Assembly: GCA_963848135.1 (NCBI GenBank)
Contig: CAWKCK010000018.1
Location: 758,938-822,937, forward strand
Origin: an uncultured delta proteobacterium
GTDB lineage: Bacteria; Desulfobacterota; Desulfobacteria; Desulfobacterales; SG8-13
Length of the DNA stretch: 64,000 nt
Direction of reading: 5' to 3'
Shown one piece after another: positions 27,001-64,000 of the stretch; position 1 is the stretch's first letter, and the number at the start of each line of letters is the position of its first letter. Made by a program: the position numbers.

Positions 27001-30000
27001 CGCTCAGCGCATCCATAATCCCGATGGCATTCGTGTTGTACCCTTTCAGACGTTCCCCGTCCCGCACGATCGTGTTAACGGCACCGATGATGTTCGCGCC
27101 CTCGGAAAGAATATCCAGAAAAGGAATAACGGCCTCCTTGTAGGGGACGGTAACGTTCGCGCCGGCAATGTGCAGAATTCTGAGACTCTGAATCGCCCGC
27201 CCGAGATCCTTTGGCTCCACCATAAAAGGCACATACGTGCCTCGAATTCCCTGGCGCTTCAACATGTTGGTGAAGATCGCCGGGGATTTCAGTTGAAACG
27301 CCCGCTCGTCGCTGAGGATGCAGTATACTTTCATGAGTCGGTTGGGCCCGTTGGGCCAAGTTTAGGGAATGTCAGAAATTCATTCCGATGGGCTCTTTTT
27401 ATAAATCCCCCAGTCCCCCTTTGTCAAAGGGGGGACTGGTAAAGACCTGGAGTGGTTTATACAGCTCTTGCGACAAGAAGGCATGCCGGAATTTAAGCGT
27501 TCCCTCCTTTCAAAAAGGAGACCAGGGGTATATTCTACTGTCGCGCACACACGCCTATAGGAACATATTTATGACAACAGCTTTAAGTCCTCTATGTCTG
27601 TTAGACCAGCTGTTGCAGCACTCAGGCCTCATAGCCATCCGAGCTGATGCCACCAGCCTCACAGACTCAAGCGGAACCGGCCTAACCCCTTAAGGATACA
27701 TGTTCACTTCGGCCAGATCCGGACCCAGATAAGACCGTTCGTTTTCTCCCAGGATGCCCAGAGACAAACAAATGATGGTCCACAAATGAACCGTGTGAAA
27801 TTGGCCTTCAAAGTGCTCTTTCAAGTCGTGAATCTGAGAGTGACAGTTGTGGCAAGGGGTGATGCAATAATCAGCCCCGGTGCGATCGACCTGTTCAAAT
27901 TTCAATTTTCCGTAAGCGCGTCTGGCTTCTGGAAATCCGGACTGCAGGAATCCGCCCCCTCCACCGCAGCAGAAATTATTGGACCGATTCGGTGTCATGT
28001 CGATAAAATTTTCTTCTCCGACACAGGCCTTCACCACGAACCGCAGATCTTCAGCAATCGGGTCGCCTAGCGACTTGCGCACCAGTTGGCAGGGATCCTG
28101 CACGGTAAATTTGACGCCCAGTTTCTTGTTCCAATCGGAGTTGAGTTTAAGTTTTCCTTCACGGACCCATTGAGCATAATACTCGATGATACTTTTGACT
28201 TCGAAATCGTGAGGTATTTTAAATTTATTCAGTCCGACCCGGACTGAGAAGAATTCGTGCCCTCACTCAGTATTGAGCCAGACACTACACTTGAGATCCT
28301 CTACAACTCGGGTTTTTATGCGGACATTTTCTTCCCATTTCTCCAAATCGGCACAGAACAGGCAGTAATTTTCTGCCGCCCACCCCTTGGTGCCATAGGT
28401 CCAGTCGGCCCCCACCCGGTGCAGAATTTTCCAAAGCGGGACCATCTCGTCCGGCTCCGTCACCGGTTCGCGGGAATTTTGATTCAGGAAGAACATGGCG
28501 CCTTCTTTGTCAAGCGGAGCCGTCATATCTGCGAATTCGGGCTGGCTCTCCTGGTACTCTTCCAGCACATCCTCGACAACGAACCTGAAATCCTCTTCAG
28601 AAGCCCCCATGGCACTGCAGGTCTCATGTTTGAATGACATTTCACATGATCCCCGAATTCCCTTGGGTTGTTCTTCTTTCGCCCACCGGTTACGGACATT
28701 GAAAACCAATTGCGGGATATCGATTTTCATTGGACAAGCATAGACGCATCGCTGGCACATGGTACACATCCAGGCCCATTTGGAATTGAGAACCTCTTCG
28801 TCGAGACCAAGGGCCGCCATCCGCAGATATTTTCTGGGATCCATATCTTCCAGCCCGGAAGCCGGGCAGCCGGATGCACATAGTCCGCACGTCAAGCACG
28901 AATTCAGGTTCCCTCCTTCCGGAAGCAGGGCCATGACCTGGTCTTTGAAGGTGGGGCCGCTTTTCTTCTTCAACACGATCGCCTGATTCGACATCGATTC
29001 CTCCACAGGGATTAAGTTGTGAGTGTTGGGCCGGTTCGTCGTTCATGGGCCGCTCAAATATCTATAAAACAGGCTAAACCGACCCAACCGTGTCACCTGG
29101 ACATTTCGCCAAATGGCGGCTTTCATGGTCAAGGCATTTCGAGGCGAAACTGTTGTCCACCGAACAAATCCTGGAGTAACGCGAGCTATGGAAGCTCTCT
29201 GTTTGGCCAGCAGGGTGGACTATTTCGGCGCTTTTATCGCCTTCTTGACAGCTCCAAATACATACCGTCAGACTGTGCCAAAATGTCCAATGACAACGCG
29301 GTGTTTTACTTCCAGATCACTTGCTGAAAAGATTTCACGAAATTTTCGGGTCAGGCCAAATCAAGCAGTTTCTTAATGCTTTTCGTAATCTCTTCAGCCG
29401 AGGCCGGCTTGGCAATGTAATCATCCGCTTCGGTGGCCATGCCGTCGGCATGGGTATACCGGGTGGAGGTGACATGGGAAGCCACGGCTGTCAAAAGGAC
29501 AATCGGTATGTCGCAATACTTATCGTCGCCCTTGAGTTCCTGGCAAACGACGTAGCCGTCCTTCTCGGGCATCATTACATCCAGTACAATCGCATCCGGT
29601 GGATTGGCCTGGACTTTTTGCAAACCCTCGACACCGTTGTAAGCGACATCGACAGTAAAACCCTCTTTTTCAAGGTTTCCTTGCACGATAGATGCAAAAT
29701 CAGGCTCATCGTCGACAACTAAAATTCTCTTCTGCAGGTTCATAATAACCTCCTTGTTTAATGACGGGTTATTCACTTTTTCTTGTATATTGAGTTGACG
29801 GCCGAAAGCGAAAGGGCGCTGCGACCTCTGGCTCTTTGAACTGTTGCCCTTCGCTTTGAGTTAATTGACACTCGGCCGCGGGAAAAGCCCGGCACGCTCC
29901 ACGATCTCCGGAACCTTTTCTTCCCACTCGATGGCCATGATGTGAAAGCCAGCGACACCTTTTACTTCTTTCAGGCGCTCGATGGCCTCGACACAGATAT

Positions 30001-63000: not shown

Positions 63001-64000
63001 ATACGTCGATGAAGCCGGCACTATGCAGGAGGAGACCTTCAGTATGGTGGTCCTCTCGGTGGGTCTTCAGATTCAACCGGACACCGTACAGCTGTCCGCT
63101 AAGCTCGGCATTGATCTGAACAGGTACAACTTTGTCAATACGCACCCTTTCAAACCCGTAGAGACCAATCGTCCGGGGGTTTTTGTGTGCGGCGTCATCC
63201 AGGGCCCCAAGGACATTCCCAGCTCGGTCACCGAAGCCAGCGCCGCCGCCTGCATCGCCGGGGCTAAACTGGCCGAGGCCCGCGGTCAGGACATTCCCAG
63301 GGTGGAAGTCCCGACAGAACGGGACATCACCGGCGAAGATCCGCGCATCGGGGTGTTCGTCTGCAACTGCGGCATCAACATCGGCGGCATTGTAGACGTT
63401 CCGGCCGTAAGGCAATACGCTGCCGGCCTGCCGAACGTGGTCTACTCCGACGAAAACCTCTTTACCTGCAGCCAGGACACCCAGGAGAAGATCAAGGAAA
63501 AGATCAAGGAGCATAATCTCAACCGGGTGGTGGTTGCCTCGTGTAGCCCCAAGACCCACGAACCGATGTTCATGGAAACCCTGGAAGCCTGCGGTCTTAA
63601 CCGCTATCTCTTTGAAATGGCCAACATCAGAAACCAGGATTCATGGATTCATTCCAAGGATCCGGATGCCGCCACCGCTAAGGCCAAGGATCTGGTGCGC
63701 ATGTCAATCGCCCGGGCCGCCAACCTGCGGACCCTGCACCAGAAAGTGGTACCGATCAACAAGCGGGCCTTGGTCATCGGTGGGGGTGTGGCCGGAATGA
63801 ACGCCGCCCTGGGTCTCGGCAACCAAGGATTTGAGGTTTCCCTGGTGGAAAAGAACGCCGAGCTGGGCGGATTCTCCCGCAAGCTGCACCACACCATCGA
63901 AGGCGAGGATATCCAGGGTTATCTCAAGGACCTTGTCGCCGATGTACAGGCCAACGAAAAAATCGATGTTCTGACAGATGCCCAAATCGTGGGTGCCGAA

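Follow-up and report, generated by a model that had tools for sequence, protein, structure and literature searches.

Gene clusters interrupted by in-frame TGA codons

The window analysed here is a stretch of 64,000 nucleotides of contig C18 of an uncultured delta proteobacterium of the Desulfobacterales; coordinates are window positions unless a contig is prefixed (C18:n). Two paralogous gene clusters in the window have TGA codons in frame within HdrA-like, MvhD and HdrD/GlpC-like genes, written below as selenocysteine (Sec, U).

Cluster A is on the minus strand and consists, in order, of metF-like, hdrL, mvhD, metV, metF, response regulator and hdrD/glpC-like genes. The metF-like gene (36462..37331), assigned by NCBIfam/domain match, is followed by a gene for an HdrL-type protein of 1483 aa (32001..36452), an HdrA with an inserted GltD/NfnB-like NAD(P)-binding module, in which a TGA at 36257-36255 lies in the Sec motif NDCAMUI; translation table 11 shortens this orf to 32001..36038. 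The stop codon of hdrL, also TGA, overlaps the start of a short mvhD (ATGA; 31537..32004), which has its in-frame TGA at 31956-31954 in the N-terminal motif CCNFUGY and a hairpin at about 31939-31925 (fold energy -24.1 kcal/mol). Next are metV (30790..31458), encoding an MTHFR C-terminal-domain protein (PF12225, E 5.7e-37), and metF (29861..30793), encoding a methylene-tetrahydrofolate reductase with NCBIfam matches to PRK08645 (2.3e-62) and TIGR00676 that are both under the curated cut-offs; these matches bear out the proximity to MetF and MetV on which the survey had remarked. A single-domain response regulator with NCBIfam receiver-domain matches (29351..29776) separates them from an HdrD/GlpC-like Fe-S oxidoreductase (27690..28994), in which an HdrC-like 2x[4Fe-4S] half is fused to an HdrB-like CCG half. 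The latter gene has a TGA at 28265-28263 (motif NTEUGHE) and a hairpin at about 28245-28229, and is split by table 11 into 27690..28103 and 28263..29006. Its product combines Fer4_8 and CCG domains with the UGH motif of the Fe-S oxidoreductase-like selenoproteins. The U probably sits in the first CCG-type motif; phmmer left the stretch around it unaligned to HdrB. Further TGA-bearing copies of this gene are found at C18:824390-825688 and C2:79832-80962.

Cluster B is on the plus strand and continues past the window end, in the order hdrA, long mvhD, hdrA, mvhD, hdrD/glpC-like and metF, of which all except metF contain a U codon. The first gene (58090..61110) encodes a double-module HdrA of 1006 aa with a TGA at 58270-58272 (motif NDCSMUI) and a hairpin at about 58288-58305, and is shortened to 58408..61110 by table 11. 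Its U aligns with Cys197 of the HdrA chain 5odc_A, as counted from the ungapped block. The long MvhD (61221..61970, 249 aa) is an MvhD domain with a C-terminal extension of about 120 aa, for the last 119 residues of which no NCBIfam family was found at E 1e-6. Its TGA (61419-61421) is in the motif VAGUHFGDCHY, upstream of a hairpin at about 61437-61455, and table 11 yields two orfs, 61149..61421 and 61491..61970. The second double-module HdrA (61982 to the window end, on to C18:823951) has a TGA at 62168-62170 in the motif NDCAMUV, and its table 11 orf runs from 62171 to the window end. A twin of the short mvhD, also a Sec gene, is just past the window end.

The three HdrA-type proteins match NCBIfam HdrA2 with 993, 929 and 721 bits, under the 1100 cut-off of the exception-level model, and each has the DCxxU signature of NF040770-type selenoprotein HdrA, with Sec at the Cys beside the FAD site. 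The MvhD proteins belong to the MvhD/VhuD family (PF02662; FlpD E-values 5e-50 and 7e-37), the U of the long form aligning with a Cys of 9sw2_D, and have Sec at different sites, site 2 in the long form (GUH.GDCH) and site 1 in the short form (CCNFUGY). The five TGAs that the survey reported in the window (28265 and 36257 on the minus strand, 58270, 61419 and 62168 on the plus strand) are indeed in frame, in three HdrA-like genes, one MvhD and one HdrD/GlpC-like gene, all five of which are cut or split as table 11 orfs; Pfam and NCBIfam domains continue across the TGA in every one. The survey's count of six Sec genes at this densest spot of the genome was too low; the span holds eight, because the two short mvhD genes (31537..32004 and its twin) had been missed.

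Outside that span, a further Sec gene (19961..21301, plus strand) encodes a flavoprotein like CoA-disulfide reductase or NADH oxidase. Its TGA (20084-20086) is followed by a hairpin at about 20108-20125 (fold energy -24.1 kcal/mol over 66 nt), and a Pyr_redox_2 domain (Pfam) spans residues 2-303, across U42. The motif SAUGLPY places Sec at the redox Cys, as in the CoA-disulfide reductase type (SxxUGLPY), and a UGxP motif is on record for this family in Table 1 of PMC13188914. Conservation of the TGA is weak: the column is TGT or TGC in the three relatives read, and TGA is present in just one of 33 orthologue rows from other genomes. At this site, there is less to argue against a base error or a recent nonsense change.

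Selenocysteine decoding and conservation of the TGA codons

The genome encodes tRNA-Sec, SelA, SelB and SelD. A tRNA-SeC gene (C2:490574-490671) has a Sec-type structure and the anticodon tca, and NCBIfam models identify selB (374 bits, cut-off 242), selA (622 bits, cut-off 268) and selD (372 bits, cut-off 125), the last of which carries one TGA itself.

The survey had left most of its sites to family motif and context. When conservation in relatives was checked for the HdrA, MvhD and GlpC sites, the TGA was found to be kept, which excludes its occurrence by chance; the counts below come from related genomes, which are non-independent samples. Both the long and the short mvhD have an identical TGA column in 11 of 11 loci (of other families, for the long form), and the short form has TGA in 45 of 46 rows from other genomes. 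For the HdrD/GlpC-like gene, one TGA is present in every one of the best 60 or so rows from other genomes, and a lower-scoring paralogue group is without it. Across 80 named loci, U and C alternate at the same positions (U 89 / C 45 for the HdrA motif, U 74 / C 18 for long MvhD, U 27 / C 2 for GlpC), and the order HdrA:U, MvhDlong:U, HdrA:U, MvhDN:U, GlpC:U recurs in 17 of the 80, with all-Cys versions also found. Within the genome itself, paralogues number five with U and five with C for each HdrA site, and eight with C and one with U for each of two MvhD-long-type sites; an HdrA at C12:36190 is among the all-Cys paralogues.

A hairpin with a G-containing loop is located downstream of all seven Sec sites in the window. 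For long MvhD, U-type homologues fold more firmly downstream than C-type ones do (-12.7 versus -8.1 kcal/mol). For HdrA, the U-type hairpin is no firmer than the C-type (-10.5 versus -10.7 kcal/mol, n = 86 and 44) and overlaps the sequence coding for the conserved KLVEVGRH; the HdrA hairpin alone does not amount to evidence of a SECIS element. A search of the whole window with Rfam at gathering thresholds gave no matches, so no curated SECIS model was found.

On these comparisons of sequence, the in-frame TGAs of the HdrA-like, MvhD and HdrD/GlpC-like genes are selenocysteine codons. The SelA/SelB/SelC/SelD system of the same genome would decode them, aided by mRNA hairpins 15-25 nt downstream, and Sec would thereby substitute for a conserved Cys in three types of subunit, where we infer a chemical role for it. 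The families are those already catalogued in PMC13188914, whose tables and text list HdrA, MvhD and Fe-S oxidoreductase-like (UGH) selenoproteins with the same domains and equal Sec positions (CxxU in HdrA, CxxU in MvhD, UGH in the Fe-S oxidoreductase), and up to two Sec sites for MvhD (VhuD) in Table 1. Knowledge of the Sec decoding mechanism, or of which families use Sec, is unchanged by this case.

Genome-wide selenoproteome

The 24 genome-wide positions listed by the survey are all in-frame TGAs with family motifs, and its total of at least 44 selenoprotein genes, of which these 24 were checked singly, agrees with an independent six-frame scan that added 25 sites to the 24 known, for about 49 genes with 50 Sec codons. 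In 1505 read-through orfs the scan detected coding potential on either side of the TGA, and 540 of these passed the loosest hairpin cut. True and false sites could not be told apart by a crude hairpin score (listed true sites ranged from -4.3 to -11 kcal/mol), and for that reason a best-of-six-frames filter was adopted, which left 301 candidates, among them 22 of the 24 listed sites; length or score thresholds removed the other two, SelD and the Prx-like gene at C3:469934. From the 279 non-listed candidates, 35 were picked by hand according to motif, hairpin or paralogue and submitted to Pfam together with a NiFe gene and five listed controls (41 in all); the other 244 or so were judged by eye on a 19-residue context and may still include true Sec genes. 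A relaxed rerun on the window alone overlooked the true sites 31956 and 62168 because upstream genes overlap them, and the scan is therefore not exhaustive. It did not recover the survey's MtaA-like candidate.

Fourteen of the picked candidates were rejected: L053, L058, L068, L071, L077, L078, L079, L081, L082 and L085 have no Pfam domain, the domains of L057 (GNAT) and L061 (sugar transferase) begin downstream of the TGA, L084 has separate domains flanking the TGA and represents two genes, and L076 (MASE10) has just a weak N-terminal overlap.

The survey's CueP with a conserved TGA is genuine, the TGA being retained in both of two homologues at 45-46% identity; a mention of CueP is absent from the main text, Table 1 included, of the 2026 review PMC13188914.

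Could the TGAs be ordinary stops, in pseudogenes, truly split genes or sequences with base errors? Separate table 11 orfs on either side of several sites would fit, as would the indel errors that the survey noted in the assembly, the near uniqueness of the TGA in the gene for the CoA-disulfide reductase-like protein and the scrambled C-terminus of an extra DsbA/FrnE-like candidate (C2:425566). Yet distant families retain an identical TGA column, the TGA in every case takes the place of a conserved Cys and has a hairpin after it, and the Sec machinery is complete. Ordinary stops are already contradicted at the HdrA, MvhD and GlpC sites, and we consider them very improbable overall. Least probable of all is a genome-wide reassignment of TGA to a standard amino acid in the style of genetic codes 4 or 25, an idea with no specific support; many long frames open up as a matter of course once TGA is taken as a sense codon. 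The reassignment is contradicted by TGA as the terminator of hdrL and of many other genes, with only about 50 sites genome-wide qualifying as Sec; by the scan, in which only 301 of the 1505 read-through orfs were best of six frames on both sides; by the Pfam result, in which a domain crosses the TGA in about half of the 41 picked orfs, always at a Cys-type position; and by the Sec-type structure of the tRNA with anticodon tca.

The survey's ranking of this genome among the most selenoprotein-rich is fair with respect to Desulfobacterium autotrophicum HRM2, also a complete-oxidising member of the Desulfobacterales, for which PMC2702500 describes at least 31 Sec proteins (about 49 genes here versus 31). 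It does not extend to the top: PMC13188914 gives at least 57 for the Olavius algarvensis Delta 1 symbiont and 63 for a Methylomirabilota MAG, which the present genome resembles in coming from an anaerobic organism of Thermodesulfobacteriota type and in having dozens of Sec genes across many redox families. The selenoproteome is large yet no record, and of an already familiar type. It adds one more highly selenium-dependent Desulfobacterales genome, in which about fifty redox genes, core energy-metabolism subunits included, are mis-called by standard gene finders; metabolic models built from such calls would miss HdrA, MvhD, HdrD, FdhA, SelD and others.

Predicted function of the two clusters

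In Moorella thermoacetica, MetFV-HdrABC-MvhD is the methylene-tetrahydrofolate reductase of the acetogen type. Cluster A likewise brings together genes for MetF, MetV, HdrA, MvhD and an HdrBC-type module, and cluster B has metF, metV being confirmed in cluster A only. The present proteins differ from those of M. thermoacetica in that a single HdrD-like protein combines HdrB and HdrC, HdrA takes the double-module or HdrL form, and Sec is present in three subunit types. Because of this gene neighbourhood and the analogy with the acetogen enzyme, clusters A and B are proposed most likely to encode electron-bifurcating methylene-tetrahydrofolate reductases of a MetFV-HdrA-MvhD-HdrD type. Each would act in the Wood-Ljungdahl pathway as a methylene-/methyl-tetrahydrofolate oxidoreductase using flavin-based electron bifurcation (or confurcation), with the FAD of HdrA as the bifurcation site, MvhD as a [2Fe-2S] wire, the HdrD-like protein as an HdrBC-type thiol/disulfide or electron-exit module, and MetFV as the folate site. 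The subunits presumably form a physical complex, with putative substrate and direction. The response regulator inside cluster A counts against this function.

A different role for the same selenoproteins is conceivable but unlikely: the Hdr, MvhD and HdrD proteins might serve sulfate respiration by reducing DsrC or a different disulfide with electrons from NAD(P)H (via the GltD-like insert of HdrL), from formate or from H2, metF being merely adjacent. The hdrL/mvhD loci of D. autotrophicum adjoin dsr or fdh genes, and its HdrL was proposed as a conduit of NADH electrons to sulfite reduction (PMC2702500); here, a Sec-FdhA gene (C18:833524-836340) is located about 8 kb past cluster B, and the best NCBIfam matches of the HdrD-like protein are HmcF, TmcB and DsrK, all far under their cut-offs. 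Against such a role, each of the two paralogous clusters contains metF in the orientation of its other genes, accompanied by metV in cluster A, and the arrangement is that of the acetogen enzyme. The best explanation overall (probability about 0.9) is Sec decoding in this genome, with two paralogous clusters that most likely are of the bifurcating methylene-tetrahydrofolate reductase type; what the sequences show directly are the reading frames, the Sec machinery, the TGA conservation, the Cys/Sec pairs, the domain content and the gene order. The survey's observations are thereby confirmed, and its interpretation is supported in part.

More tentatively, and with somewhat less than an even chance, cluster B would be a five-selenoprotein operon, its gene order shared by no fewer than 17 of the 80 loci, for a selenium-dependent bifurcating methyl-/methylene-tetrahydrofolate oxidoreductase, with CueP as an addition to the 2026 catalogue. 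If so, complete-oxidising Desulfobacterales would need selenium to run the Wood-Ljungdahl pathway in reverse. Selenoprotein operons of Hdr, MvhD and GlpC have already been described in Deltaproteobacteria, PMC13188914 recording one of four selenoproteins (frhA-frhD-hdrA-GlpC). Cluster B resembles it in gene clustering and comes from the same bacterial group, but has no frhA and has instead two hdrA, two mvhD and hdrD/glpC, then metF, with five Sec genes in a row rather than four. In D. autotrophicum HRM2, for which Sec-containing HdrA, HdrL, HdrD and MvhD are described (PMC2702500), Sec is likewise present in the HdrL fusion of HdrA with a glutamate-synthase-like NAD(P) module and in HdrD, and an mvhD likewise follows each hdrA or hdrL. 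In the present genome, the Hdr, MvhD and HdrD subunits beside MetF carry Sec as a set.

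Selenocysteine codons of the Hdr and MvhD genes

When TGA is read as selenocysteine (Sec, U), table-11 fragments fuse into five long genes in the window: on the minus strand, an HdrD/GlpC-like Fe-S protein (27690-28994, U in WLNTEUGHEF) and an HdrL-type protein of 1483 residues (32001-36452, NDCAMUIISPK); on the plus strand, an HdrA of 1006 residues (58090-61110, NDCSMUIISPK), a long MvhD of 249 residues (61221-61970, VAGUHFGDCHY) and a second HdrA (from 61982, NDCAMUVISPK). The five TGAs, at positions predicted by the survey's finding, proved to be in frame; each is spanned by Pfam and NCBIfam domains and has a hairpin with a G-containing loop 15-25 nt downstream.

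The survey's finding counted six Sec genes in this densest spot of contig C18 (786,627-825,712); their presence was borne out, but the number was too low. The MvhD orf on the 3′ side of HdrL (128 residues) lacks the first 20 profile positions; extended upstream, it contains an in-frame TGA at 31956 (CCNFUGY), and its start codon ATG overlaps the HdrL stop (ATGA). A twin of this short MvhD lies past the end of the window (C18:823954-824361), with the second HdrA on one side and the second GlpC-like gene on the other. With these two overlooked genes, the interval contains eight Sec genes. Our own scan added a CoA-disulfide-reductase-like gene (19961-21301, SAUGLPY) with a strong hairpin downstream of the TGA; in the three relatives examined, TGT or TGC occupies the aligned position. 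As only 1 of 33 orthologues elsewhere has the TGA, confidence is lowest for this site.

Conservation and decoding of the TGA sites

There is good support for Sec decoding at these sites. When the rest of the order was searched in a sample of 60 genomes, each from a different family, TGA was found in all 15 best matches to long MvhD (same column in 11/11 loci fetched), in 45 of 46 rows for short MvhD (same column in 11/11 loci from other families) and, as a single TGA, in all of the approximately 60 best rows for the HdrD-like protein, below which a lower-scoring paralogue group is without TGA; rows for the HdrA N-terminus were likewise a mixture of TGA and no TGA. Among 80 named loci, mostly of Desulfobacterales MAGs and isolates but also of Syntrophobacterales and Olavius-associated Delta 3/4 symbionts, U and C occupy the motif column 89 and 45 times in HdrA, 74 and 18 in long MvhD, 31 and 2 in short MvhD, and 27 and 2 in the GlpC-like protein. 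Cys/Sec paralogue pairs are present inside the studied genome as well. The U of HdrA corresponds to Cys197 of chain 5odc_A (counted from an ungapped alignment block), which adjoins the bifurcating FAD and is Sec in some methanogens; that of long MvhD falls on a conserved Cys in 9sw2_D.

The hairpins contribute less. No Rfam match was found at gathering thresholds in the whole window. The HdrA hairpin is equally stable in Sec-type and Cys-type sequences (-10.5 vs -10.7 kcal/mol), and it shares sequence with the codons of the conserved KLVEVGRH stretch, therefore providing no independent evidence. Downstream of the long MvhD site, Sec-type sequences fold more stably than Cys-type (-12.7 vs -8.1 kcal/mol), with a Mann-Whitney p of 1.6e-8 that makes the contrast look stronger than it is because the sequences compared are related.

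TGA is not a general sense codon here, since the HdrL gene itself terminates in TGA and no more than about fifty sites across the genome qualify. The genome (6.03 Mb, 18 contigs) has one identified tRNA-SeC, and selA, selB and selD all exceed curated cut-offs in a genome search, selD also containing an in-frame TGA. A second selB-like gene (C15:43659-45516) occupies two adjacent frames (model positions 13-105 and 106-580), which suggests a frameshift or an assembly indel.

Organization and predicted function of the clusters

The minus-strand cluster reads metF-like, hdrL(U), mvhD(U), metV, metF, response regulator, hdrD-like(U); the plus-strand cluster reads hdrA(U), long mvhD(U), hdrA(U), mvhD(U), hdrD-like(U), metF, metV being identified in the former only. 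The five-Sec order of the plus-strand cluster recurs in 17 of the 80 related loci, among which all-Cys versions are also present. Judging from gene order and by analogy with the MetFV-Hdr-MvhD-type methylene-THF enzyme of acetogens, both clusters are predicted to encode electron-bifurcating methylene-THF oxidoreductases of this type. Alternatively, they may route electrons to sulfite reduction or formate metabolism.

The C-terminal 119 residues of long MvhD (61611-61970; also in the copy at C5:290383) form a conserved extension of about 120 residues, retained at full length by the majority of the 80 related loci, with no match in Pfam or NCBIfam; by eye, it resembles a winged helix. Between the clusters are a sigma-54 regulator, an Mrp-type antiporter operon, two GcvH-fusion genes, an archaemetzincin, a two-component pair and a Usp gene. 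In the tandem GcvH-fusion genes (51097-53145), the N-terminal 150-165 or so residues match no family. In the antiporter operon (43981-46837), a 661-residue orf matches MrpD/NuoN models only up to about residue 450 and shares about 400 nt with the next MrpD-like orf (45554-46837); this overlap could be genuine or stem from an indel error.

The selenoproteome of the genome

In-frame TGAs within the motifs expected were confirmed at all 24 positions available from the survey's finding, which claimed at least 44 selenoprotein genes. By a hexamer model, 1505 read-through orfs have coding potential both before and after the TGA; requiring the best of six frames on both flanks left 301, with 22 of the 24 listed sites retained. 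From the 279 non-listed candidates, 35 were picked by hand and checked against Pfam, some also against NCBIfam, and paralogues were sought within the genome. The scan added 25 candidate Sec genes: three each of YHS and MvhD; two each of PrdB/GrdB-like, DsbA-like, LYCAU-type rhodanese (one with a double LYUAU) and HUIPC-type thioredoxin-like; and one each of DsbA/FrnE-like, MerB-like, HesB-like, OsmC, DUF166/DfsP, DsrE, DUF1573/OS_HP2, CueP, DUF3179, CoADR-like and ExtKL cytochrome. Several exceed the cut-offs of NCBI selenoprotein-specific models, and nearly all of these families and motifs are listed in Table 1 of a 2026 review (PMC13188914). The total is about 49 genes with 50 TGAs, including two identical Prx-like copies. 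Several near-identical repeats with TGA-interrupted frames, in 5-6 copies (e.g. C1:232634, C17:1207934, C17:1258138, C5:125000, C5:372557), resemble insertion sequences more than selenoproteins.

According to the same review, the Olavius Delta 1 symbiont has at least 57 selenoproteins and a Methylomirabilota MAG has 63; it also describes a four-selenoprotein operon, frhA-frhD-hdrA-GlpC, in Deltaproteobacteria. For D. autotrophicum, the genome paper lists at least 31 Sec proteins, HdrA, HdrL, HdrD and MvhD among them, with each hdrA or hdrL followed by mvhD. Therefore the genome is rich in selenoproteins without setting a record, and its pattern was already known: what the survey observed stands and is extended, and its interpretation largely holds but was over-rated.

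Three other genes deserve mention. A [NiFe] hydrogenase large subunit (C3:566735-568381, scan candidate L086) has Sec in the N-terminal RSCGVUTYTH, the C-terminal DPCIAC being all Cys; among orthologues from other genomes, 16 of 34 rows share the TGA, and of 9 loci compared, 6 have it in the same column and 3 have Cys there. An N-terminal CXXU in Group 1 hydrogenases was reported for two sequences only (Baltazar 2011), according to PMC13582414; within this order the feature seems more widespread than that account implies. A CueP-family periplasmic metal-binding protein (C12:101796-102362, candidates L080/L203) has an in-frame TGA in KTHTUGVHY, found in the same column in both homologues from the 60 other genomes (45-46% identity); the main text of PMC13188914 contains no occurrence of "CueP". 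The rhodanese gene with two in-frame TGAs one codon apart (C7:125391-125399, IVLYUAUHDEY) likely encodes a double-Sec protein.
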